The notes under the pieces: model-generated
Databases searched by the model: none
What the model saw: the letters and a program-made list of their open reading frames with translations, nothing else
Told to the model about the DNA's origin: nothing
In this document: positions 6,071-62,510 of the stretch, piece by piece
Layout: each line of letters opens with the position of its first letter
Numbering within the stretch: position 1 is the first letter of the stretch
Assembly: GCF_002368115.1 (NCBI RefSeq)
Contig: NZ_AP018316.1
Span: 305,344 to 369,343 of the forward strand
Length of the DNA stretch: 64,000 bases
Source of the DNA: Dolichospermum compactum NIES-806
Lineage (GTDB): Bacteria; Cyanobacteriota; Cyanobacteriia; Cyanobacteriales; Nostocaceae
Direction of reading: 5' to 3'
Made by a program: the position numbers and the translations under genes

Positions 6071-7507
6071 ATGGCAATGGATGATACATTTGACACCCTA
6101 AATCAATCCTTATCTATCCCCAAAGTCAAGATATTGACGATGTTTCGGCTAGGATTGTTTCAAATGGGGTTGAGTATGATGTCTATCTTGACTCTGGGAG
6201 TGCTTAACCGTGTCATGATTCAGGAAATCGCAATTCCGGCAACTATAGGTAGTTTAGTATTAGCAATACCTTCTTTTATCGCACCGACAAGGATTTTATT
6301 TGGGCAAATGTCCGACGCTAAACCCTTATTAGGTTATCATCGTACGGCTTATGTATGGGGAGGAGCAGGAATATTTGCGATCGCTGCATTTTTAGCGGTA
6401 CAAGTAATGTGGCAGTTAAATGCGGCTAATATTGGTGATAAGTGGACATGGACTACCCAAACCATCGGTTGGACAGCAGTTTTAGGGTTAGTGTTCGCAA
6501 TTTACGGTTTAGCAATTTGTGCTAGTGGTACAGCATTTGCAGCTTTATTAGTGGATATCTCCGAAGAAGACAACCGTTCCCAAGTTGTGGGGATTGTTTG
6601 GTCAATGTTAATGGTAGGGATTATAGTAGGGGCAATTATCAGTTCCAGCTTATTAAAGCAATTAAGCACAGACGCACCTCTAGAAACTTTACAAGCGGCA
6701 ATTAATCGTCTATTTATAATTGTTCCCAGCATCGTTTTTAGTTTAGCAATTGTGGCAACTGTAGGAGTTGAAAACAAATATTCCCGTTTCTTAACCCGTG
6801 CCAATAAAGGAAATCGGGAAGATGGTATTACCTTAAAAGTTGCTTGGAAAATTTTAACAGCTAGTCCACAAACAGGCTTGTTTTTCACATTTTTATTAGT
6901 GATGACTATCAGCTTGTTTATGCAAGATCCCATTTTAGAACCTTATGCAGGGCAAGTATTTAAAATGCCCTTAGCAGAAAGTACCAAACTCAACGTTTTT
7001 TACGGGACAGGGATATTAATTTCCTATGGAATCACAGGTTTTTTCATTGTTCCCCGTTTGGGTAAAAAAAGGACTATAAAGTTAGGTTGTATCTTAGTAG
7101 CAGTTGCCGCTTTATTAATAGGTGTTTCTGGATTTTCTGCAAATCCATCTCTCCTAAAATCAACTTTAGTTTTATTTGGTTTATCTACTGGTTTTGTCAC
7201 TACCGCAGCCGTTACTTTAATGTTAGACTTAACAATTGCTGAAGCCGCAGGTACATTCATTGGCGCTTGGGGACTTGCCCAGTCTTTATCTAGAGGCATT
7301 GCTACGGTAATTGGTGGTACTGTTTTAGATTTAGGACGCAAGTTTTTACCCGATAATTTGGTCTTAGCTTATGGCATGGTATTTCTATTAGAAGCTGTGG
7401 GAATGTTGATATCAATTTGGTTTTTGAATCGAGTCAATGTTACAGAATTTCAAACTAACACAAAACAAGTTTTAGCCTCTGTTCTCGAAAGTGACTTAGA
7501 TAATTAA
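6071..7507 (+). CDS. BCD/PucC-family MFS transporter
   Basis: About 12 predicted TM helices. The N-terminal MFRLGLFQMGLSMMSILTLGVLNRVMIQEIAIPATIG... is typical of the PucC/LhaA (bacteriochlorophyll-delivery-like) MFS branch found in cyanobacteria. The ORF-track start at 6035 is GTG, and the ATG at 6071 is the likelier start. Confidence 0.75.
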   Translation: MAMDDTFDTLNQSLSIPKVKILTMFRLGLFQMGLSMMSILTLGVLNRVMIQEIAIPATIGSLVLAIPSFIAPTRILFGQMSDAKPLLGYHRTAYVWGGAGIFAIAAFLAVQVMWQLNAANIGDKWTWTTQTIGWTAVLGLVFAIYGLAICASGTAFAALLVDISEEDNRSQVVGIVWSMLMVGIIVGAIISSSLLKQLSTDAPLETLQAAINRLFIIVPSIVFSLAIVATVGVENKYSRFLTRANKGNREDGITLKVAWKILTASPQTGLFFTFLLVMTISLFMQDPILEPYAGQVFKMPLAESTKLNVFYGTGILISYGITGFFIVPRLGKKRTIKLGCILVAVAALLIGVSGFSANPSLLKSTLVLFGLSTGFVTTAAVTLMLDLTIAEAAGTFIGAWGLAQSLSRGIATVIGGTVLDLGRKFLPDNLVLAYGMVFLLEAVGMLISIWFLNRVNVTEFQTNTKQVLASVLESDLDN

Positions 7508-12670: not shown

Positions 12671-12875
12671 TAGGGGTAAAGCAAGAGCTTCATTGGTGTC
12701 AACTTAACGTAAAACGGGCGGTTAGAAACCGCGTCTACACAGGCAAAACCCACCTGCGTGGGTTTCAATCCTTGATTTTTCCTTAGTCCGCGCAGGCGGA
12801 CTTTGTTTGTGTAGCCGTGAATTCCATTCGCCAGGGCTTAAGTTGACACCATTAAGCTTTTGCTTTACCCCTACA
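12671..12875. repeat. MITE-like element with ~37-bp terminal inverted repeats (GTAGGGGTAAAGCAAGAGCTTCATTGGTGTCAACTTAA)
   Basis: The left arm 12671-12708 and right arm 12838-12875 are reverse complements with about two mismatches and one indel. The ~130-bp interior carries two sub-hairpins (aaacccacctgcgtgggttt and agtccgcgcaggcggact). A partial inverted copy lies at 33039-33090. Confidence 0.55.
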
Positions 12876-13075
12876 CATCTGGGTTCTTTGTCATTAGACA
12901 TCTGGTGAAAATTAAATATGCGTGACATGAAACCCCTGTAGAGAGGTTTCATGGAACGTCTCTACAATCTTTACCGGAGATGTCTATTAGCCATAACCCA
13001 ACATTATCAAGGATCTTGTTGGGTTTCGCTGTCGCTCAACCCAACCTACATTTCCTTAACCGACAAGCACCCCTA

Positions 13076-26443: not shown

Positions 26444-26472
26444 GGGTGGGCTATTTTGTCCACCCTTATTTT
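26444..26472. terminator. intrinsic terminator hairpin shared by the convergent atpE and Type IIG gene
   Basis: GGGTGGG-ctattttgt-CCACCC followed by TTATTTTAT. The hairpin is symmetric, so it could act on both strands. Confidence 0.5.
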
Positions 26473-29400
26473 ATCCTTCTATAATTTTTATCTCTTCTGT
26501 TGTTAGTTCGTAAAGTTGATAAACTAACTGATCTATTTCTGTTTCTAATGTGGTTGTATCTGCTTTTGGATCTAATTTTTTAGCGGTGAGAATCTGATTA
26601 ACCATTTTTTCTAATAACAATTCTTCAGTTTCCGTAGTTTCTTTAATGGGTAACATTTCAATTTTATACTTTTTCCATCTATTTGTACCCATTCCTGTGG
26701 TAGTTGAAATCTGGTTAAAATACCATTCTGATAGTTTTGAATTTAAAATTGCTAACAAATATTTAAGTTTTTCACCAGTCATTAAAAATGTAGTAGCTTC
26801 AGCATAATAGCTAGAGTCATCAAAAGCAAATTTAGGTTTATCAGAAATTTCACCCCAAACAATTTTAGGTTTATTAAAATCATCTAAATAAGCACAGTTT
26901 CTTAAATTTGTCCAATCTTTACCCTGATCTTGTCTTTGTTCAATTTGAGGAAGAAAAGAAATTAAATAATTATAAATAGATGGGTAATTTTCTTTAACTT
27001 TTATTCTCTCGATGTTATTTTTTGCCACTCCATTATGTGTATTAATTAGATAAAATCCAGAAAATTCATAACTATATTTTTTTAAGTCTCTACCTCTTAA
27101 AATTGGCTGAATTATTTCAGCAGAATTAGAACTTTCAGCAATTAATTGATGTTTAGTTTCCTCATTGATAATAAAAGCTGCATTTAGTCCAGTAAGCAAA
27201 CCTCTATTAATATTAATATCAAATTCTTTTAAAAGTTTAGAGGATTGCTCTATTTTTTGTTTCAAACTTACGGTTTCTTCATTACCTATAATCCATTCTG
27301 ATGTATTAGGTATTGTAAATTGAAAATAGTTTTTATCAAAATACTCTTCTAATGAAGAACCAATCAGATAATTATTCGTTAAACTAGCAACATCAAAAAA
27401 TTCATTAACTTTATCTTTTTTCAAGATGAAAATATTTGATTCTACAGTTGCTTCCTCAAAAATTTGCATATCTTCAATATTTAATAAAGTTTGAGGTTGG
27501 AGATTTTCAATTAAATATTTTTTCAGTAAATCACCATAAATAGTTTTTAACCAAGAATTAGAAGTAATGTAAGTTAAAAATCCTGCTTTTCTTAACAAAC
27601 AACTTCCTTTTTCGTAAAACAAGCAATAAATATCTGAACCCCTTGTATAAGTTTGATAATTATTTTCAAAATAAGCAGTTTGATTTTTTTCTTTAATTTT
27701 AGATAGTGAAAAATAAGGAGGATTGCCAATTACGACATCAAAACCGATAAAATCACCTTCATCATTCAAAACTTCAGGAAATTCAAACCGCCATTCAAAA
27801 GCATTTTGATACAATTTACCACTTTTTTTATCCTCAATTTCACTATTAAGTTGATTAATTTGCTGTTCTAACTCTTCTTGCTTTTTTTGACGACTTTTTG
27901 CTTCTGCTTTACTTTCTGCAAATAATGACTTCTGATCTCGTAAATGACGAAGTTCTGCAACTTTTTGATTTCGCTTTTCTATATTCGGATCATTGCTACT
28001 AATTTCTGTACGTATTTTACTTTTAATATCATTAATTAACCTCTCTATTTCCTGTTTTTTATCCTTGTTATCAGTATTATGATAGGTTGTTATAGCATTT
28101 CTATAACTTTCAATATTCCAATTGCTTTTTTTCAAAATTGTCCGTAAATCCCAATTTAAAGGAAAACGACTGATTAAAGAATTACCAGTTTTAATATTAA
28201 TATCAATATTTGGTAAAGTTTCCAATTCTCCTATATTCCCCTCTCCTGGTAGGAGAGGAGTTAGGGATGATGTCTTATAATAAGCATTCTTTAAAAGCTC
28301 AATCCATAAACGTAACCGACAAATATTAACTGAATTAGGATTTATATCTACACCAAATAAACAGTTTTCAATAATTGTCTGTTTTTCATGAAAAAGTGTT
28401 TCTTGTATGCGTCTACTTTCTGAATTTTTAGGATTATATTTGAAAAAATTACCATCGTCATCTGTAATATTTAACTCATCATTTTCAATTTTTACATCAT
28501 AATCTCTTAAAGTTTTTCCTTGTCTATCAAGTAAAACCTTCAAGTCACTTTTAATAGTAATAATTTCATTTAAAGCTGAAACCAAAAAATGTCCAGAACC
28601 TACTGCTGGATCACAAATTTTTAAACTATTGATAATCTGATTAGCTTCTTTTTTATCTGTTATTTTATCATACAATTCGTCAATATTTGCACAGTTCCAA
28701 CCTTTAATTTCCCTGAATTTTTGTAAAACTGCTCTGCGAATAGTTTCCCGACACATATACATAGTAATAAAGCCAGGAGTGAAGAAAGAACCATCTTGAT
28801 AACCGTTAATTTTCTCAAAAATTAAACCTAAAACAGAAGCATTAATTAAAGTTTTATTTTCTTCTTGAATTTCCTCTGCACCTTCACTGCTAAAGTCGTA
28901 AGCATCAAGAAATGCAAAAATATATTCTAGTGCTTTTAATTTCCCTGTCCGTGTATTACCATTATCTTTAAGAACTGTTTTGTTAAAAATAGAAAGTTTT
29001 TCATCATTGATTAAATTACTAATAACTATGGTTTTATGTTCGATTTCTGATACTTCAAATAAAGAACTATTCAAATAAGGAATATTAGCAACAATATTTT
29101 TTATATGTTCGTCTCTTTCATCTGGTTTACGAGATAAAACACCAAAAAATAAACGGTTGAGATTACCAAAATCTTGAATCTTTGCTATATTGAGAAATCC
29201 AAGAGATTTATCACCTTGATGATAGTTAATTAATTGGGATTCTAAAAGTTTCAAAAAGAGAATGCGATTAATCCAAGTAATAGCTAATTCTAAACTAACA
29301 TTAAAAAGTCTCTCTTCGGTATTTTCTCCAAATTGTTCTAAATTTTCTAATCTGTCAATTTTGCGTAATTCTTGCAAACGAGTAATAGTATTTTCAATTA

Positions 29401-30250
29401 ATGAACCCTGTTCCCTTTCATTAATTGATTTACGCTGAATTAATTTTTTACTACCTTCTTTAATTTCCGTTAAACCAAGAATGTGTAGTAATTCACTATA
29501 AAAGTTTCTATTTAAACTATTGCTATCATTAATAGTAGGTAACTTTAATAAATGTTGTGGTGAAAACAGCTTAAATAAAGGAATCAGTTTTTGATCATTT
29601 TCAGGATTTTGATTAATTAAATACTGTTCATAATCTCTAATATCAAAATGTGTGAAAATTAGTTCATTTTGAATTTTATCTATTGCAGGTTGAGCAATTT
29701 CGTTATAAAAGAAATCCGTGCGAGAATTAGATAGACGTTTTTCTTCAAAATCAGTAAATTGCTTGACTAATTGTTTATTCTGAGCAAACAAATTGTCAAA
29801 AAGTGTTGCATCAAAAATGAACCATTCATGAATATTAGTAGCAATTAAATATTTAATTTCTGGATTTTTATTTGTAATCCGTTCTCGTAAAAAGTATAAA
29901 ACTAATTGTTGTAATGCTTTAGTATTTAAATTATTAACCTTGAGCATTTCATTGTTATTTACCTTTTTAGCCTCTAAAATCACACCAACATTGCTTTTAG
30001 TATCTTTTCCATTATAAATTACTAAGTCATTACTGGCTTTAATATTTATTAAGTAATCAGCACCATAATAGGTATTTTTCAAAAAATCAGTAAGAATATT
30101 TTTATGAAATTCCTCTCTTTCGTTTTCATCAATTTGATTAAGTAGTGTAATCAGATTCCTTTTAAATATCTCAAACTCATTTCTAATTGGTTTAATTCTC
30201 AGAAATGTTTTGCTTAATGCTTGTCTAGGTTTAATTTTATTGTCAATCAT
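26471..30250 (-). CDS. Type IIG restriction-modification enzyme: N-terminal PD-(D/E)xK-like nuclease, Eco57I/TaqII-type gamma N6-adenine methyltransferase and C-terminal target-recognition region in one 1259-aa polypeptide
   Basis: N-terminal ...NGKDTKSNVGVILEAKK (D...ExK). Methyltransferase motifs SFFTPGFITMYMCRE (motif X), ICDPAVGSGHFLVSA (motif I) and, after a coiled-coil insertion, AFEWRFEFPEV...FDVVIGNPPY (motif IV). The gene is very AT-rich relative to its neighbours. Confidence 0.8.
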   Translation of the reverse strand: MIDNKIKPRQALSKTFLRIKPIRNEFEIFKRNLITLLNQIDENEREEFHKNILTDFLKNTYYGADYLINIKASNDLVIYNGKDTKSNVGVILEAKKVNNNEMLKVNNLNTKALQQLVLYFLRERITNKNPEIKYLIATNIHEWFIFDATLFDNLFAQNKQLVKQFTDFEEKRLSNSRTDFFYNEIAQPAIDKIQNELIFTHFDIRDYEQYLINQNPENDQKLIPLFKLFSPQHLLKLPTINDSNSLNRNFYSELLHILGLTEIKEGSKKLIQRKSINEREQGSLIENTITRLQELRKIDRLENLEQFGENTEERLFNVSLELAITWINRILFLKLLESQLINYHQGDKSLGFLNIAKIQDFGNLNRLFFGVLSRKPDERDEHIKNIVANIPYLNSSLFEVSEIEHKTIVISNLINDEKLSIFNKTVLKDNGNTRTGKLKALEYIFAFLDAYDFSSEGAEEIQEENKTLINASVLGLIFEKINGYQDGSFFTPGFITMYMCRETIRRAVLQKFREIKGWNCANIDELYDKITDKKEANQIINSLKICDPAVGSGHFLVSALNEIITIKSDLKVLLDRQGKTLRDYDVKIENDELNITDDDGNFFKYNPKNSESRRIQETLFHEKQTIIENCLFGVDINPNSVNICRLRLWIELLKNAYYKTSSLTPLLPGEGNIGELETLPNIDINIKTGNSLISRFPLNWDLRTILKKSNWNIESYRNAITTYHNTDNKDKKQEIERLINDIKSKIRTEISSNDPNIEKRNQKVAELRHLRDQKSLFAESKAEAKSRQKKQEELEQQINQLNSEIEDKKSGKLYQNAFEWRFEFPEVLNDEGDFIGFDVVIGNPPYFSLSKIKEKNQTAYFENNYQTYTRGSDIYCLFYEKGSCLLRKAGFLTYITSNSWLKTIYGDLLKKYLIENLQPQTLLNIEDMQIFEEATVESNIFILKKDKVNEFFDVASLTNNYLIGSSLEEYFDKNYFQFTIPNTSEWIIGNEETVSLKQKIEQSSKLLKEFDININRGLLTGLNAAFIINEETKHQLIAESSNSAEIIQPILRGRDLKKYSYEFSGFYLINTHNGVAKNNIERIKVKENYPSIYNYLISFLPQIEQRQDQGKDWTNLRNCAYLDDFNKPKIVWGEISDKPKFAFDDSSYYAEATTFLMTGEKLKYLLAILNSKLSEWYFNQISTTTGMGTNRWKKYKIEMLPIKETTETEELLLEKMVNQILTAKKLDPKADTTTLETEIDQLVYQLYELTTEEIKIIEG

Positions 30251-30590
30251 ATTGAATTACCAAAAATTATAATTTTATTTCACGCAGAGACGCTCCAGGC
30301 GCAGAGAGTAAGAGTTTGAGAGATGGAATTTTCGACTTTCATACCCCAATTCACCAACCCCTTAATATTCAGCCTCACATTGTAGCATCAAATTAAAATC
30401 AAGAAATATATTGTAATATTTTCTAACAAAACTTAAGCCATAAAATATCTAACTTCTTAAAGAAATCGGGGATATGACTCTTACAATGTATACCTACGGC
30501 ACGCTACGCTATCACGCATCGAACAGGAAAACCAGAAAGAAGATATGCAGACAGCATACGGAGAAGCTCAGTTTAATCTTTATCAACAAT

Positions 30591-30750
30591 ACCTTGTCCA
30601 TTTTTTGTAGGTCGGGTTAAGCGACAGCGCAACCCGACGCATTTTTTGGGTTATGGCTATCGCCACACTATGGCTAACGCCACGCTCCGCGAAGGTGAAC
30701 GTGCCTCAACCCAACCTACAAATCAAGACTTTTTTCAATTTGGACAAGGT
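30591..30750. mobile_element. MITE family A, copy 1 (160 bp; terminal inverted repeats ACCTTGTCCA(T/A)TTT)
   Basis: It starts accttgtccatttttt, ends ttttttcaatttggacaaggt and has an internal hairpin gtcgggttaagcgacagcgcaacccgac. One mismatch over 160 bp relative to the copy at 33110-33269. Confidence 0.7.
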
Positions 30751-30962
30751 GATGAAGAAGAGTTGATCATCCCAGTGTTGGGTGGAAATGAACTGCAAGA
30801 TATTCTTTTAGGTGTACGTTGGCTACAAAGTAAGCGACTAGTAGCAGATTTTACCGCTGGGGTGCTAACATTGGGTTAAAAAATTACATTAAGTTTAAGA
30901 AAAATCATTCCCTCCTGATGAAGTGATACCTTAGATGATTAGTTGCCCAAAGAGGCACATAT

Positions 30963-33038
30963 ATGAAAAGCTTTCCGTTTTCTCTTGGTAAAAGTAAGCA
31001 AAATAAGTTTGTCAGCGTGGCTACATCTGCAATTGCAGCCTTAGCTTTAGCAGGTGGTGTTAATGCTGCTAATGCCACTCCCATAAAAACACTGACAGCA
31101 AAAGAATTTACTTCTGTTTCTATTCCCTCTACCCAAACTCAACCCGTAGTTACTCAATCAGTAACTCGTCCAATCCCCTATCAATCAATGGGAATTGAGC
31201 CTTTAATCATTATTCCTGCCATTATTATTGGTGGTTGTTTCTTATTTGGGGGACTGGTAGTTATCGGTGAACGGGAAGTGGGAATTGTGGTGAAAAAATT
31301 CACCCTTTCCGGTAAAGGATTACCTCCTGGTAGATTAATAGCCCTCAATGGTGAAGCGGGTTTACAAGCCGATACCCTCGCCCCTGGTTGGCACTGGGGT
31401 TATTGGCCTTGGCAATATGCAGTGAAAAAAGAGTCGGTAATTGTTGTCCCCCAAGGTCAAATCGCTCTGATTGTCGCCGCTGATGGGGCTTCTAACCCTC
31501 CAGAACGGATTTTGGGCAAAATTGTCGAATGTGATAATTTTCAAGATGCTCGGAAATTCTTAACCAAAGGTGGGGAGAAAGGACGGCAAATTGCTTTTAT
31601 CACCGCAGGTACTTACCGCATCAATACAGCGCTGTTTAAAGTGATTACAGCAGCAAATGCCAGTAAAGAGGGTATGCGTCCAGAACAGTTACAAATCTAT
31701 GAAATAGCAGCGGAAAAAGTTGGTATTGTGACTACTTTGGATGGTTCACCAATTGCCGCAGGTGAAATTGCTGGGCGTGCTATTACCGGACATAATAATT
31801 TTCAGAATGGTCAAAAATTTATTGACGCTGGAGGACAACGGGGTTTACAAGAACAGGTGTTATTATCGGGTTCGTGGAATCTCAATCCTTGGTTGGTAAG
31901 TATTGAACAAGTACCGATGACTCAAATCCCTATCGGCTATGTGGGTGTGGTGATTTCTTTTGTTGGTGAAGAACAGGAAGATGTGAGCGGGGCATCTTTC
32001 ACTCACGGAAATTTGGTTAATCAAGGACATAAGGGTGTTTGGGTTGAGCCTTTATATCCTGGGAAGCACCCGCTCAATACTAAAGTGATGAAAGTTGAGC
32101 TAGTGCCGACAACAAACATTGTCTTAAACTTTACTGATAGAATTAGCGGTCAGCATGGGTATGATACGAATTTAACGGCGCTGAAACTTCTGTCATTTGA
32201 TGGTTTTAGCTTTGATTTGGAGATATTCCAAATTATTCACATTGGTGCGTCAGATGCTCCGAAAGTGATTTCCCGCTTGGGTTCGATGCAAAATGTCATT
32301 GATCAGGTTTTGCGTCCCATTGTGGGGAATTATTTCCGCAACTCGGCTCAAGAATATACTATCCTGGATTTCTTGATTGCCAGAAGTGAGCGTCAAGTTG
32401 AAGCCTCTGAATACGTTAAATCTGCCTTACGTGCTTATGATGTGCAAGCAGTGGATTCGTTGATTGGTTTGATTACGCCACCGAATGAATTAATGCACAC
32501 GCTGACAGACCGGAAAATTGCTGAGGAACAACGCAAAACTTACGAAGTTCAGCAAATGGCAGAAACCCAACGACAAATGTTAGTCCGGGAAACAGCGATC
32601 GCAGATATTCAGCAAGAGTTGGTAAAATCGGAACAAGGTGTCACAATTGCCGAGTTGCAAGCTAACGCACAAATTCAGCAAGCAACAGGTGAAGCTGAAG
32701 CCACTAAACTTAAAGCCATAGCTGAAGCTGAAGGTATCCGGGCGACAGGTAACGCTAAGGCGGAAACCTACCGGACAGGTGTACAAGCTTTAGGTCTGCA
32801 AGGTTACACAGCAATGCAGTTAATGCAAATTGTGGGCGATCGCAATGTCCGCATTATTCCTGATATCATTGTTGGTGGTAATAATGGTAGTAATAATGGT
32901 TTAGCAGATGGTTTGTTATCTATGATTCTTTTGAATCAAACTAATAGCAAAACCCATCTAGAATCGAAAATCCCTACACCTCCACCGCTTTCTAATTCTG
33001 TAGTTCCTAAAGCTGAATCTACTAATCATAATAGTTAG
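30963..33038 (+). CDS. flotillin-like SPFH (band-7) domain protein
   Basis: N-terminal TM (IIIPAIIIGGCFLFGGLVVIG), an SPFH core, then an E/A/Q-rich coiled-coil (...AETQRQMLVRETAIADIQQELVKSEQGVTIAELQANAQIQQATGEAEATKLKAIAEAEGIRATGNAKAETY...) typical of FloT-like flotillins. The true start may be the downstream M at about 31188. Confidence 0.75.
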   Translation: MKSFPFSLGKSKQNKFVSVATSAIAALALAGGVNAANATPIKTLTAKEFTSVSIPSTQTQPVVTQSVTRPIPYQSMGIEPLIIIPAIIIGGCFLFGGLVVIGEREVGIVVKKFTLSGKGLPPGRLIALNGEAGLQADTLAPGWHWGYWPWQYAVKKESVIVVPQGQIALIVAADGASNPPERILGKIVECDNFQDARKFLTKGGEKGRQIAFITAGTYRINTALFKVITAANASKEGMRPEQLQIYEIAAEKVGIVTTLDGSPIAAGEIAGRAITGHNNFQNGQKFIDAGGQRGLQEQVLLSGSWNLNPWLVSIEQVPMTQIPIGYVGVVISFVGEEQEDVSGASFTHGNLVNQGHKGVWVEPLYPGKHPLNTKVMKVELVPTTNIVLNFTDRISGQHGYDTNLTALKLLSFDGFSFDLEIFQIIHIGASDAPKVISRLGSMQNVIDQVLRPIVGNYFRNSAQEYTILDFLIARSERQVEASEYVKSALRAYDVQAVDSLIGLITPPNELMHTLTDRKIAEEQRKTYEVQQMAETQRQMLVRETAIADIQQELVKSEQGVTIAELQANAQIQQATGEAEATKLKAIAEAEGIRATGNAKAETYRTGVQALGLQGYTAMQLMQIVGDRNVRIIPDIIVGGNNGSNNGLADGLLSMILLNQTNSKTHLESKIPTPPPLSNSVVPKAESTNHNS

Positions 33039-33090
33039 GCGAATAGAATTTGCGGCTACACAAACAAAGTCCGCGCAAGCGGACTAAATA
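33039..33090. repeat. partial inverted copy of the 12671-12875 element
   Basis: gcgaatagaatttgcggctacacaaacaaagtccgcgcaagcggactaaat matches the reverse complement of 12781-12832. Confidence 0.5.
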
Positions 33091-33109
33091 AGTTTTTGAT
33101 CAAACCAAT

Positions 33110-33269
33110 ACCTTGTCCATTTTTTGTAGGTCGGGTTAAGCGACAGCGCAACCCGACGCATTTTTTGGGTTATGGCTATCGCCACACTATGGCTAACGCC
33201 ACGCTCCGCGAACGTGAACGTGCCTCAACCCAACCTACAAATCAAGACTTTTTTCAATTTGGACAAGGT
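33110..33269. mobile_element. MITE family A, copy 2 (direct orientation relative to copy 1)
   Basis: Identical to 30591-30750 except gaaGgtgaac versus gaaCgtgaac. Confidence 0.7.
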
Positions 33270-33273
33270 ATTG

Positions 33274-33819
33274 TCAAACGTAATCAATTTTTCTTGTAGA
33301 ATCAGAACAGGGACGCAAACGAGTGATATTGAGTCCGGGATAACTATCCAGAGTGAGTTCTAAACCATTAGTTACACCTTGTATCTGAAGTTGCTCTTCT
33401 AAATAAAGCAAAATTACTTTAGTTCCTTGTCTTAAAATCTCAGATGGCATTAAACTCAGACTATTACCTTTTAAGTAAAGATTTTTAAGTTTTTTCAATC
33501 TGCCGATTTCAGGTGGCAGTGACTCTAAGTAATTATTGCTAAGGTCTAAGGTCTCTAAATTAGTAAGTTCTCCAATTTCACTAGGTAAATATCTAAGTTG
33601 ATTGTTGCTAACAGCTAATATTTTTAAGCTAACCAACTGCCCAATTTCAGTAGGTAATATTTTTAGTCTATTTTCCCCAATATCTAGTTTTTTTAGAGGA
33701 TGTTCTAAAATCTTATGAATATTTTTTTGAAGATTTGGACTAGTTAGCTGTAAATCTCCAAGGTCTAATTCAGTTCCTTTATTTTTTACAATTCTGCCAA
33801 AAAAATTATTGTTGATCAT
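33274..33819 (-). CDS. leucine-rich repeat (LRR) protein, 181 aa, without catalytic domains
   Basis: Consecutive ~23-aa repeats of the form LxxLPxEIGxLxxLxxLxLxxNxL (LKILPTEIGQLVSLKILAVSNNQLRYLPSEIGELTNLETLDLSNNYLESLPPEIGRLKKLKNLYLKGNSL). AT-rich. The stop codon lies 5 bp from the end of MITE copy 2. Confidence 0.7.
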   Translation of the reverse strand: MINNNFFGRIVKNKGTELDLGDLQLTSPNLQKNIHKILEHPLKKLDIGENRLKILPTEIGQLVSLKILAVSNNQLRYLPSEIGELTNLETLDLSNNYLESLPPEIGRLKKLKNLYLKGNSLSLMPSEILRQGTKVILLYLEEQLQIQGVTNGLELTLDSYPGLNITRLRPCSDSTRKIDYV

Positions 33820-36428: not shown

Positions 36429-38129
36429 ATGACTAAGATTATTGCATTTAAGGAAGAATCACGACGTGCATTAGAGAGGGGTATTAACGCTCTGGCAGAT
36501 GCAGTGAAAATCACTTTAGGACCAAGAGGTCGTAACGTCCTATTAGAGAAAAAATTTGGTATTCCCCAAATTGTTAACGATGGTATCACTGTTGCTAAAG
36601 AAATTGAATTAGAAGATCCTCTAGAAAATACTGGTGCTAGACTAATTCAGGAAGTAGCATCAAAAACTAAGGATATAGCTGGCGATGGGACTACCACTGC
36701 CACAGTTCTAGCACAAGCCTTGATTAATGAAGGTTTGAAGAATGTAGCTGCGGGGACAAATCCTATTAGTTTAAAACGGGGTATTGATAAAACCGTTGAG
36801 GCGCTGGTAAAAGAAATTGCCAATATCGCTAAACCCGTAGAAGGAAGTGCCATTTCCCAAGTTGCCACAGTTTCCGCTGGTAATGATGGGGAAGTTGGAC
36901 AAATGATCGCGCTGGCGATGGAGAAAGTGACCAAAGACGGTGTGATTACCGTTGAAGAATCTAAATCCTTCACCACTGAACTAGAAGTAGTAGAAGGAAT
37001 GCAGGTTGATAGAGGTTATATTTCTCCCTACTTCATCACCAACAACGAACGGATGACAGTGGAGTTTGAAAATGCTCGCATCCTGATTACCGATAAAAAA
37101 ATCAGCAGCATTCAAGATTTAGTCCCCATTTTGGAAAAAGTTGCCCGTTCCGGTCAACCTTTATTGATTATTGCCGAAGATGTAGACGGTGATGCTTTAG
37201 CAACCTTGGTTGTGAATAAAGCGCGTGGTGTATTAGCGATCGCCGCAATTAAAGCTCCTGGTTTTGGCGAACGTCGCAAAGCTATGTTAGAAGACATTGC
37301 CATTCTCACCGATGGACAAATGATTTCTGAAGACATTGGCTTAAGCTTAGATACCGCCACTTTGGAAATGTTGGGAACAGCGGAAAAAATCAACATTGAC
37401 AAGGAAAATACCACCATTGTCGCTGGTAATGCTGCTAAACCAGAAATCCAAATTCGGATTGAGCAAATTCGCAAACAATTAGCTGCAACTGATTCCGACT
37501 ATGATACCGAAAAACTGCAAGAACGCATTGCTAAGTTAGCCGGTGGGATTGCCGTGATTAAAGTCGGTGCAGCCACAGAAACCGAACTCAAGGACAGAAC
37601 CTTGCGGATTGAAGACGCACTCAACGCTACTAAAGCCGCAGTAGAAGAAGGTATTGTTCCCGGTGGTGGTGCAACCCTAATTTATTTATCTACCAAGATA
37701 GAAGCAATTAAAAATAGCCTCACCCCCGAAGAAAGAATTGGCGCTGATATTCTTAAAAAAGCTTTAGAAGCTCCCTTGCGGCAAATCGCAGAGAACGCTG
37801 GGGCAGAAGGTTCTGTGATTGTTGCCAGAGTGCGGGAAACTGATTTGAATATCGGTTATAACGCAGCTACAGGGGTATTTGAAGACTTAATTGCTGCTGG
37901 TATTATTGATCCCGCAAAAGTGGTTCGTTCCGCCTTACAAAACGCCTCTTCTATTGCCGGTATGGTTCTAACCACCGAAGCCATTATTGCCGAAAAACCT
38001 GAAAAACAATCCGCTGGGGCCCCTGATGGTGGTATGGGCGGTATGGGTGGCATGGGCGGTATGGGTGGTATGGGTGGTATGGGCGGTATGGGTGGCATGG
38101 GTGGCATGGGTGGCATGGGTATGTTCTAA
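36429..38129 (+). CDS. groEL: chaperonin GroEL (stand-alone GroEL2 type with a C-terminal GGM repeat tail)
   Basis: [42 protein letters not shown]..., ending (GGM)n MF. There is no groES immediately upstream, so this is the solitary cpn60-2 copy typical of cyanobacteria. Confidence 0.95.
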
Positions 38130-38164
38130 TTTGCCACTTTCCCAAATCCATAATTTATAAATTA

Positions 38165-38199: not shown

Positions 38200-38319
38200 A
38201 CCGTTATTAAGTACCACGACAGAATTAATTACATATTGGTTATTTACCAATTCTTTGCCAGTTAAGGATTTCAGCCCAGATTTTTGTGTAATTAATTTTG
38301 TCCAATTACTTATAGCGGT

Positions 38320-38497
38320 ATGCACTCTTGGTGAGATTCAGTAGGGGTTTCCCCGCCCTTGATTGTATTGCATCAAGCGCGATAACTGTTATTACAGCAA
38401 ATTGTCATCAAACCCGGAACAAGAACCCCACCCCCAACCCCCTCCCCGCAAGCGATGAGGGGGCTAAGATGTACCTTATATGATTGGAAATCGCTGT
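38320..38497. repeat. dispersed repeat, copy B (the same family as 5252-5331 and 8779-8926)
   Basis: tatagcggtatgcactcttggtgagattcagtaggggtttccccgcccttgattgtattg ... aagaaccccacccccaaccccctccccgcaagcgatgagggggcta. Confidence 0.5.
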
Positions 38498-42203: not shown

Positions 42204-42363
42204 GGCGTTGCTGATTAAGGGTATGAATTTTAGTCTCACGCAAAGGCGAGGCAGCGCGGTCTTGGGGGTTTCCCCCATGAGCGACTGCCGTAGCAAAGAC
42301 GCACTGAGGTTTGAGTTTTAAAGATTCAATTTGGGAATTTCATACCTCAATTCAGCAACGCCG
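42204..42363. mobile_element. MITE family B, copy 1 (terminal inverted repeats GGCGTTGCTGA(A)TT; carries a ~45-bp nested insertion relative to copy 2)
   Basis: ggcgttgctgattaagggtatgaattt ... aaatttcatacctcaattcagcaacgcc. The interior is collinear with 60452-60566 (reverse orientation) except for an extra gaggcagcgcggtcttgggggtttcccccatgagcgactgccgtag. Confidence 0.6.
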
Positions 42364-58479: not shown

Positions 58480-58890
58480 CCCACATTCCGAACTTCATTT
58501 TGTAATACACCAAGATTACCAATATAGGGCTAATAATAGTCAGATAGCGATTCCTACGGAGCGCTTCGCTATCGCATTACCACCAGGAAAAATCAGGATT
58601 AATATTTAATAAAACTATCCTAATTTAGTAACATTTTTTGAAGCATAAGTATGTGACACTTTGAAGTGCGGAATGCCGGTTTACGTAATAAATAAAGGAT
58701 GTTCAATGGACATCTCCAGAAATTAAATATGCGTATCCTAGTACCGCCGTAAGTAATCGAACAAAATTAATTACACAGAAATCTGGGCTGAAATCCTTAA
58801 ATGGCAAAGAATTCGTAAATCATCAATGTATAATTAATTTTATCGCGGTACTTATTGCAGAGTGAATAATTCACATAACTACCAAAAAAA

Positions 58891-60448: not shown

Positions 60449-60451
60449 TCC

Positions 60452-60566
60452 GGCGTTGCTGAATTGAGGTATGAAATTCCCAAATTGAATCTTTAAAACT
60501 CAAACCTCAGTGCGTCTTTGCGCCTTTGCTTGAGACTAAAATTCATACCCTTAATCAGCAACGCCA
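60452..60566. mobile_element. MITE family B, copy 2 (115 bp, inverted relative to copy 1, lacks the nested insert)
   Basis: ggcgttgctgaattgaggtatgaaattccc...cttaatcagcaacgcc. Its reverse complement aligns to 42204-42363. Confidence 0.6.
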
Positions 60567-60791: not shown

Positions 60792-62339
60792 TTAATTTTT
60801 GGCTGCTGGTTGAGCGCTGGGAATGGTAATGTCTATGGTAGTGACTTTGGCGGCTAAATTGGTTAAGGGTTGTTTCATATCAGCTTGGTTTCCGACTACT
60901 AAGGTGACTAAATTTTCTGGTTTTAAGTATTTCTGCGCTACTCGTTTCACGTCTGCGGTTGTGGTGCTAGTGATGGCTTTTTGATAGCGAAAGAGGAAAT
61001 CGGCAGGATAACCATAATATTCGTATCGCATTAATCTGGATAATGTTTGGCTAGGATCTTGAAAGTTGAAGACAAAGGAGTTTAAGGTGGAGTCTTTGGC
61101 TTTATTTAATTCTTGGACTGTGATATTTGCGGTTTGTAGCCGTTTAATTTCTGTTTCCAGGGATTTGATAAACTGAACTGTGGTTTCGGTGCGGGTTTGT
61201 CCTCCAGCGACGAATGTTCCTGGGTAGTCGAAACGGGGACTCCACATTCCATATACAGAATAAGCTAATCCTTGACGCGATCGCAATTCATTAAATAAGC
61301 GTCCCCCAAAGCCATTTAATACGCTATTCATGACATCTAAGGCTGGATAATCGGGATTGTCGAATTTTCCGCCTAAATGACCAATTAAAACACTACTTTG
61401 GGTGAGGTGGGGTTGATTAACGAAATATACACCACCTAAATTAGCTTGGGTGACTTGTGGTAGTTGGGTTTTGGCAATTTGCGGATTTGGTTTCCAGTCA
61501 CCTAATTTAGCTTGAATGAGCGATCGCATTTTTTGAGCATTAAAATCACCCACAATCCCTAAAATGATCTTATTGGGGTGAAAATACTGTTGATAAAATT
61601 TCTGCAAATCATCACGGGAAATTTTATCGAGCGTTGCATATTCAACTGTCCGGGCATAAGGACTTTCTTGCCCATAAATTAATTTTCTCAACTCTCGACT
61701 GGCAATACTATTAGGATTATCATTGCGTCGAGCAATACTACCGCGAATTTGAGTTTTATCCACATCCAACTTTTCCTGTGCAAAAGCCGGTTCTCGGAGT
61801 ACCTCTGTAAATAACCCAAATACCATGTCTACGTCTTCAGTCAAAGCTTCAAAACTAGCACTTCCAGCCGCTTCACCCATATCTGTTTCCACAGAGGCAG
61901 CCCGTTGTTCTAGAATTTCATTTAATTTATCTGCGGAATGTTTTTGAGTACCACCACTTCGCAATGTCGAACCCACTAAAGTTGCTAAACCTGCTTTTTC
62001 GGATTGTTCCCAACGGCTACCTGTTCTGATTAGTGCTGTACCATTTACCAATGGTAGTTCATGATCTTCCATCAAATAAACTACTAAACCATTTTTGAGG
62101 ACATACCTTTCATACTTGGGTAATTTGATTGCCGATACTGGCGGAAATTGTAATTCATCGTAATGCTTTGCTGTGGTTGCTGCCCAAGAAAAATTCAAAT
62201 TTACGAGCAAACAAGCAGCAACAATCACCAATGTAAAAACAAATCTTTGTCCCTTAAAAAAGTGGAATTTTTTGCTTTTCAAATCTAACCTCAACATATC
62301 TATCTTCAACTTTGGATCAGGATTTATGGCTAACGCCAC
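60792..62339 (-). CDS. M16-family peptidase homologue lacking the HxxEH zinc motif (probable non-catalytic subunit)
   Basis: It has the two-domain M16 layout (...GGRLFNELRSRQGLAYSVYG...) but GLATLVGSTLRSGGTQ where HxxEH would be. The annotated start is GTG, and the M at residue 15 followed by a signal/TM segment is an alternative. Confidence 0.7.
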   Translation of the reverse strand: MALAINPDPKLKIDMLRLDLKSKKFHFFKGQRFVFTLVIVAACLLVNLNFSWAATTAKHYDELQFPPVSAIKLPKYERYVLKNGLVVYLMEDHELPLVNGTALIRTGSRWEQSEKAGLATLVGSTLRSGGTQKHSADKLNEILEQRAASVETDMGEAAGSASFEALTEDVDMVFGLFTEVLREPAFAQEKLDVDKTQIRGSIARRNDNPNSIASRELRKLIYGQESPYARTVEYATLDKISRDDLQKFYQQYFHPNKIILGIVGDFNAQKMRSLIQAKLGDWKPNPQIAKTQLPQVTQANLGGVYFVNQPHLTQSSVLIGHLGGKFDNPDYPALDVMNSVLNGFGGRLFNELRSRQGLAYSVYGMWSPRFDYPGTFVAGGQTRTETTVQFIKSLETEIKRLQTANITVQELNKAKDSTLNSFVFNFQDPSQTLSRLMRYEYYGYPADFLFRYQKAITSTTTADVKRVAQKYLKPENLVTLVVGNQADMKQPLTNLAAKVTTIDITIPSAQPAAKN

Positions 62340-62510
62340 GCTTTGCTATCAAGATTAAAGGATTGATAGGATTAATCTTTAATCCTGTTTGGATTTTGGA
62401 TTTTTAGTACAGCATGACGCAAATAAACCAACTATTTTTAATCGCCAAAAATTTTGCTAAATATTACTTTTGACTTTTGACTTTTGACTTTTGAATTCCG
62501 CCCTGCGGTA

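Follow-up and report, generated by a model that had tools for sequence, protein, structure and literature searches.

A flotillin gene of Dolichospermum compactum bracketed by two very probably separate MITE insertions

In the chromosome of Dolichospermum compactum NIES-806, a flotillin gene is bracketed by two nearly identical copies of a short element in direct orientation, and the locus raises the question of whether this pair, which a first-pass annotation of the sequence had described as a composite, cassette-like arrangement, brought the gene to its present place as the cargo of a composite transposon, or whether two MITEs (miniature inverted-repeat transposable elements) arrived one by one on either side of a resident gene. 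The locus was analysed within a 64,000-nucleotide stretch (contig NZ_AP018316.1, positions 305,344 to 369,343), hereafter called the window, whose first base is position 1, and compared with loci from related genomes. The pair very probably represents two separate MITE insertions around a native flotillin gene, since the second copy has an insertion footprint of its own and the gene occupies a syntenic position in relatives free of the MITE, which argues against composite movement.

Structure of the element and its two copies

A repeat search of the window returned a direct repeat of 164 nt at 30587–30750 and 33106–33269, with 99% identity and a spacing of 2519 bp, bearing out the earlier description of two near-identical direct copies one base apart; the single internal mismatch is G at 30694 and C at 33213. 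A 28-nt left-end probe matched both MITE copies only within the window, and no match is expected in shuffled sequences. The full element is 168 bp long, with the termini CAATACCTTGTCCA...TGGACAAGGTATTG, and its ends lie 4 bp outside the limits set in the first-pass annotation (CAAT on the left, ATTG on the right). The suspicion that the unit reaches past the terminal inverted repeat (TIR) first recognised was thus correct, and the start 4 bp earlier, at CAAT, explains the partial similarity of the upstream flanks that had been remarked upon. A segmental duplication was considered as the source of the repeats and ruled out, because identity ends at the element ends; the larger duplication including non-MITE flanks, which had been named as a finding that would speak against a MITE, is not present.

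The components of the pair and the gene between them are as follows.

30587–30750, plus strand: MITE copy 1, 164 of 168 bp; left terminus CAATACCTTGTCCA intact, last 4 nt (ATTG) gone, no target duplication
33106–33273, plus strand: MITE copy 2, complete, 168 bp, with a 14-bp perfect TIR
30649–30702, plus strand: extra internal block of copy 1, about 46–54 nt, which marks the 168-bp variant as opposed to the common 122-bp form
33168–33221: extra internal block of copy 2, matching the block of copy 1
30963–33038, plus strand: flotillin (SPFH/Band_7) gene, 691 aa, intact, 95% identical to that of Dolichospermum UHCC 0684

The perfect TIR of copy 2 (CAATACCTTGTCCA / TGGACAAGGTATTG) is kept across 31 aligned copies of the family, and inside it lie additional imperfect inner inverted repeats and a modular variable core. 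The element takes the shape of a long hairpin when single-stranded, with a DNA fold of -34.8 kcal/mol (z = -6.0), and both the TIR and the internal stem-loop proposed at first sight are real. At 168 bp the element has no transposase coding capacity, and its sole open reading frames (ORFs) are chimeric read-throughs.

Insertion site of copy 2 and conserved position of the flotillin gene

At copy 2 the window reads ...aagtttttga TCAAAC (168-bp element) TCAAAC gtaatcaattt...; the empty orthologous spacer in three Dolichospermum assemblies (L052–L054) reads ...aagtttttga TCAAAC gtaatcaattt..., with a single TCAAAC (tttttgaTCAAACgtaatc), and the alignments of the two flanks of copy 2 have exactly 6 bp of the relative in common. 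The two states form a classical filled/empty insertion pair, with the following features at the filled site.

33100–33105: target duplication TCAAAC, left of copy 2
33274–33279: target duplication TCAAAC, right of copy 2; the leucine-rich-repeat (LRR) gene has its stop codon (TGA, minus strand) in the first 3 nt of this duplication
33274–33819, minus strand: convergent LRR gene, 181 aa, left intact by copy 2 inserted at its stop codon

Copy 2 entered the spacer of 66 bp that separates flotillin from the convergent LRR gene, exactly at the stop of the latter, duplicating TCAAAC. The target duplication restores the stop codon, and the LRR ORF is no shorter or longer than that of the relatives, being 181 aa in L052–L054 as well, with 95% identity.

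The flotillin gene is native to this chromosomal position and not cargo, since the order atpDC, flotillin, SDR-GT4 is kept in MITE-free relatives. The window shares atpD-atpC and an MmeI-like restriction-modification gene with Dolichospermum UHCC 0684 (L003), the downstream LRR-SDR-GT4 genes with L052–L054, and both atpDC and SDR-GT4 with Cuspidothrix (L059). The comparison with related strains that had been proposed as a check found flotillin at the syntenic position, and no MITE at either window site in L003, L052–L054 or L059; in UHCC 0684, the closest relative (flotillin 95% identical), neither flank of the gene carries a MITE. Flotillin homologues occur across Nostocales at 75–95% identity, and the GC content of the gene (0.428) and of the segment (0.42) is inside the window range. 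The repeats also account for the breaks of short-read assemblies on both sides of flotillin: one such contig (L002) spans exactly the inter-MITE segment, because the assembly breaks at the repeat.

A variable island separates atpC from flotillin, as seen upon comparison of the window (26471–30250, minus strand) with L003, L052 and L059. It is occupied by a restriction-modification fusion gene of 1259 aa resembling MmeI/Eco57I (DUF7149, DUF7814, Eco57I, TaqI_C) in the window and in UHCC 0684, by hydantoinase A/B and Uma2 genes in L052–L054, and by a protease remnant only in Cuspidothrix L059.

Copy 1 in an aspartic protease pseudogene

The segment between the copies had been described as holding only the flotillin gene, which is correct insofar as flotillin is its one intact gene; a 129-bp pseudogene tail next to copy 1 had been missed. 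The two parts of this pseudogene lie on either side of the element.

30525–30586, plus strand: upstream piece of an aspartic protease pseudogene of clan AA, DTGF type (...EQENQKEDMQTAYGEAQFNLYQ), 96.9% identical to L059 5065–5129, interrupted by copy 1
30751–30879, plus strand: C-terminal tail of the same pseudogene (DEEELIIPVLGG...VLTLG*), 129 bp

The protein rebuilt from the fragments matched the model TIGR03698 (clan AA aspartic protease, DTGF type) with an E-value of 4.8e-9, a score that falls short of the model cutoff. A protein search with the joined flanks of copy 1 recovered only short Nostocales fragments, two of which, P0121 and P0126, span the copy 1 junction (...MQTAYGEAQFNLYQ-ETIFF/GAILL-DEEELIIPVLGG...). 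In Cuspidothrix L059 the protease remnant lies directly between atpC and flotillin, and its DNA reads ctttatcaa, gaaactatatttttc, gatgaag, as compared with ctttatcaa, the element minus ATTG, gatgaag in the window, so that copy 1 replaces 15 bp. The right tip of copy 1 is truncated, ending in ...GGACAAGGTGATG (GGTGATG) versus ...GGTATTG in every other copy.

Copy 1 would have inserted into an already decaying protease pseudogene upstream of flotillin, after which a deletion of about 25 bp would have taken the last 4 nt of the element, the presumed target duplication and 15 bp of the flank. Insertion followed by deletion, an order of events which we infer from the sequence comparison, appears to be the simplest history of copy 1.

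A 69-aa chimeric ORF starts in copy 1 and ends as the protease tail. It is identical to P0122, annotated as 'hypothetical protein [Dolichospermum compactum]', and this annotated protein is thereby unmasked as a chimera of the MITE and the pseudogene tail.

A MITE family of Nostocales

The repeat is a true MITE, of a family spread through Aphanizomenonaceae and Nostocaceae, and its target duplication measures about 6 bp: the TIRs, the target duplications, the many copies scattered over several genomes, and the sites known both filled and empty establish this status, in agreement with the first-pass annotation. An exact-match scan found the left-end 20-mer CCTTGTCCATTTTTTGTAGG at 48 loci in at least 12 species-representative genomes, the hosts including Anabaena cylindrica UHCC 0172, Anabaena UHCC 0204 and Cronbergia UHCC 0137, all three rich in copies, as well as Cuspidothrix, several Dolichospermum, Aphanizomenon, and Trichormus; the same scan revealed no copy in A. 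variabilis or PCC 7120. A BLAST comparison of the unit with the 48-locus set showed conserved ends (positions 1–62 and approximately 112–160) and a variable middle. Nearly every family copy has CAATA before it and TATTG after it, which places the true termini at CAATACCTTGTCCA...TGGACAAGGTATTG, and the right end ...GGACAAGGTATTG is found in every full copy of the family alignment except copy 1. The family ranges in size from 112 to 317 bp, the commonest form being about 122 bp and the window copies representing a 168-bp variant.

Exact direct repeats of 5–7 bp lie outside the termini in 18 of the 31 full copies (5 bp in eight, 6 bp in nine, and 7 bp in one), and these target duplications are AT-rich and varied in sequence. 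A 6-bp duplication was also present in all of the copies at four loci of one metagenome. The suggested search for a TA or other target duplication thus gave a duplication of about 6 bp, of which TA is not the sequence. A TA duplication of the IS630/Tc1-mariner type was rejected, as the TA beside CCTTGTCC is part of the conserved terminus CAATA/TATTG. Altogether, these data define where the members of this Nostocales MITE family truly end, how long their duplication is, and which hosts they occupy.

Several members of the family have an unusual structure or location. A copy in Anabaena sp. 54 (L007, about 6083–6292) has an internal block of about 54 bp three times in tandem, and three partial copies stand in tandem with 132-bp spacing in Dolichospermum FACHB-1091 (L035 2652–3025). 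In the Aphanizomenon/Dolichospermum clade with a 693-aa flotillin, a 122-bp family member occupies a different site about 690 bp upstream of flotillin (L055–L058, 4193–4314) and is an independent insertion in the neighbourhood of this gene. Plasmid pUHCC0315b of Dolichospermum UHCC 0315A (L001 1496–1570) carries a truncated copy, the left 75 bp or so of the 168-bp element, with a TEK-like gene on one side and an HTH regulator on the other; the gene for an ISKra4-family transposase is located about 1.2 kb away, with no evidence linking the two.

Interior pieces of the MITE are found alone, without TIRs: TGTAGGTTGGGTT...AACCCAAC, which is the stem-loop, and TATGGCTAACGCCACGCT, the extra-block core (window 13018–13050 and 62325–62342), the extra-block core standing outside any MITE at window 62325–62342 and at L029 7746–7768. 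Their separate occurrence suggests that the family core is an assembly of independently dispersed short repeats. Small dispersed repeats nested in MITE-like hosts were reportedly described in Nostocales by Elhai and colleagues in 2008; the possible likeness concerns the internal block only, in that the core of the present family varies by discrete short blocks and one block core occurs alone elsewhere.

Mobilisation and relation to known MITE systems

The TIRs and the duplication of fixed length point, in line with the general biology of insertion sequences (ISs), to staggered-cut transposition, and the MITE would have been moved by a DDE-type transposase acting in trans. Searches for a parent IS were negative: no TIR pair 0.5–4 kb apart was found in about 0.5 Mb of fetched loci, the left-end-only copies inspected were all truncated or decayed, blastn of both ends against plasmids returned only the partial MITE in the Dolichospermum plasmid and chance matches, viral contigs contained none, and there was no transposase among the 16 window ORFs compared with Pfam. 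Given that no parent IS was detected and that the core is made up of short blocks, movement of the family by a mechanism not yet described is conceivable, though very doubtful.

Orphan MITEs are known from the same host clade. In Anabaena sp. 90, 147 MITEs are reported and described as 'type II', a term for MITEs lacking an IS of matching TIRs (PMC3542288), with which the outcome of the present searches agrees; in Baltic Anabaena, MITEs have disabled mcy genes (Fewer et al. 2011, cited in PMC3184786). By description only, the window family resembles the orphan MITEs of Anabaena and Dolichospermum in host clade, size range (77–541 bp), nested sets of inverted repeats, and a mostly intergenic, in some cases pseudogene-associated location without an IS of matching TIRs, while the arrangement around flotillin is particular to the window genome. 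The string CCTTGTCC does not occur in the Anabaena sp. 90 MITE paper or its supplement (PMC3542288), and a full-text literature search for CCTTGTCCA returned unrelated papers only.

Nezha, the best-known MITE of Nostocales, described in A. variabilis and in Nostoc PCC 7120 (Zhou et al. 2008), combines TIRs and direct repeats with a stable hairpin and with sites that are filled or empty depending on the relative (PMC3184786), and its reference copy is flanked by the 10-bp direct repeat CATTATCTAC (PMC6042816). The window element is like Nezha in being a cyanobacterial MITE of about 130–170 bp with all of these properties. However, Nezha shares its TIR with ISNpu3, while no parent IS was found for the window family, and the identification of the window element as Nezha was rejected on the length of the direct repeat (10 bp versus about 6 bp).

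Age of the two copies

The near-identity of the copies had been taken as a sign of very recent transposition. Their high similarity and the sites empty in the closest relatives fit such a recent insertion, so this claim may well be right. Alternatively, the similarity could result from local homogenisation, by gene conversion, of two older insertions lying 2.5 kb apart. The copies differ at one of 164 positions, compared with 75–97% identity between them and most other family members, and copy 1 is old enough to have undergone a terminal deletion, both of which speak for homogenisation. On the other hand, L062, a metagenome copy from an unrelated site, shares 98.8% identity with copy 2, and the L017 copy shares 96.9% with copy 1, indicating that a young 168-bp subfamily exists apart from the flotillin locus; moreover, both window sites are empty in the nearest available relatives. 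Thus, we regard gene conversion as unlikely, while giving it some small weight.

Regulation of the flotillin gene

The copies could have been co-opted for the regulation of flotillin, copy 1 providing an outward promoter, as the first-pass annotation had considered, and copy 2 a hairpin terminator or an RNA stabiliser. The hexamer TGGACA lies in the right TIR of copy 1 and is followed, 18 nt on, by GATCAT in the flank (30741–30770), this being the lone promoter-like match touching copy 1 and a weak match to the consensus; the RNA form of the element is a long hairpin (z = -5.75), and copy 2 lies 67 nt past the flotillin stop codon. However, the promoter scan returned fewer sites than shuffled sequences (3 versus 7.8), an Rfam search of the region matched no family, the same gene arrangement exists in relatives without either copy, and insertions at other loci are not associated with particular genes. 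In addition, the stretch directly before the flotillin start is conserved irrespective of copy 1.

30874–30962, plus strand: conserved flotillin upstream region, likely native promoter and leader; identity 93% to L003, 89% to L055, 83% to L052, and 90% to L059

Since these approximately 90 bp are 83–93% conserved whatever is further upstream, the native promoter and leader of flotillin probably lie downstream of copy 1. Copy 1 accordingly finds little support as a promoter source, and co-option of the pair appears quite improbable. A tRNA scan found none.

Downstream of the gene, a 50-nt repeat (GGCGAATAGAATTTGCGGCTACACAAACAAAGTCCGCGCAAGCGGACTAA) extends over window positions 33038–33087, starting from the last base of the flotillin stop codon; it recurs in inverted orientation at 12783–12832, 20 kb away, with 86% identity. 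The same repeat is also found downstream of flotillin in relatives, and it has a terminator-like hairpin on the minus strand (33068–33085).

Composite movement and present mobility

That the pair carried flotillin here as the cargo of a composite transposon is refuted as an account of its origin, and we give it next to no credence: a single gene is bracketed by two direct copies of the same family, and both outer termini are intact, which in principle would let a transposase treat the whole as a single element of 2.69 kb, but the gene is orthologous between atpDC and SDR-GT4 in MITE-free relatives, copy 2 is flanked by a perfect 6-bp duplication of its own and its empty site is precise, the pseudogene interrupted by copy 1 is a different sequence ancestral to this position, and the outer flanks, ...tctttatcaa (TTATCAA) and tcaaacgtaa... 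(TCAAAC), share no duplication around the pair. The match of the outer termini (left of copy 1, right of copy 2) to the family consensus shows capacity, not history. Composites of the Tn5/Tn10 type likewise consist of two copies of one element around a gene, with intact outer termini. The window pair differs from them in the absence of a shared outer duplication, in the own duplication of its inner element, in having a native and syntenic gene in the place of cargo, and in flanking elements that encode no transposase.

Some points nevertheless weigh against two separate insertions as the full account. Copy 1 has no target duplication, and its origin by simple insertion is supported by comparison with the distant Cuspidothrix (85–97% local identity) and not with a sister strain. 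Part of the near-identity between copies separated by 2.5 kb could stem from gene conversion, not from recency alone, and the copies of the source genome were counted within the 64-kb window. Finally, no autonomous IS with matching ends was found, and the transposition mechanism is deduced solely from the anatomy of the TIRs and the duplications.

With its inner terminus lost and the outer termini intact, copy 1 may now be transposable only as a part of the 2.69-kb MITE-flotillin-MITE segment. It is very doubtful that this segment is the only transposable unit with copy 1 and that flotillin, a housekeeping gene, is mobilised by a transposase, or deleted or amplified via the 164-bp repeats, in D. 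compactum populations. RecA-dependent deletion or duplication via the near-identical direct repeats of 164 bp could occur as a generic possibility; there is no sign of either event.

The MITE pair is therefore real, but it is ordinary repeat-element biology. It offers a worked example of a gene bracketed by repeats that is not a cassette, to be recognised by the insertion footprint of each copy and by the synteny of the gene in MITE-free relatives.

Other repeats in the window

Two further pairs of inverted repeats, each with its members about 18–20 kb apart, were detected in the window. The first (38208–38320 and 58742–58854) is 113 nt long with 88% identity, and the second (42204–42363 and 60451–60565) comprises 71 nt at 100% and 45 nt at 98% identity; both probably belong to other families of small repeats. 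A tandem repeat with a 9-nt unit (GGTGGTATG and variants), present in about 13 units at 38010–38135, belongs to the 3' end of the Cpn60/GroEL gene (36429–38129), where it encodes the usual C-terminal GGM tail.

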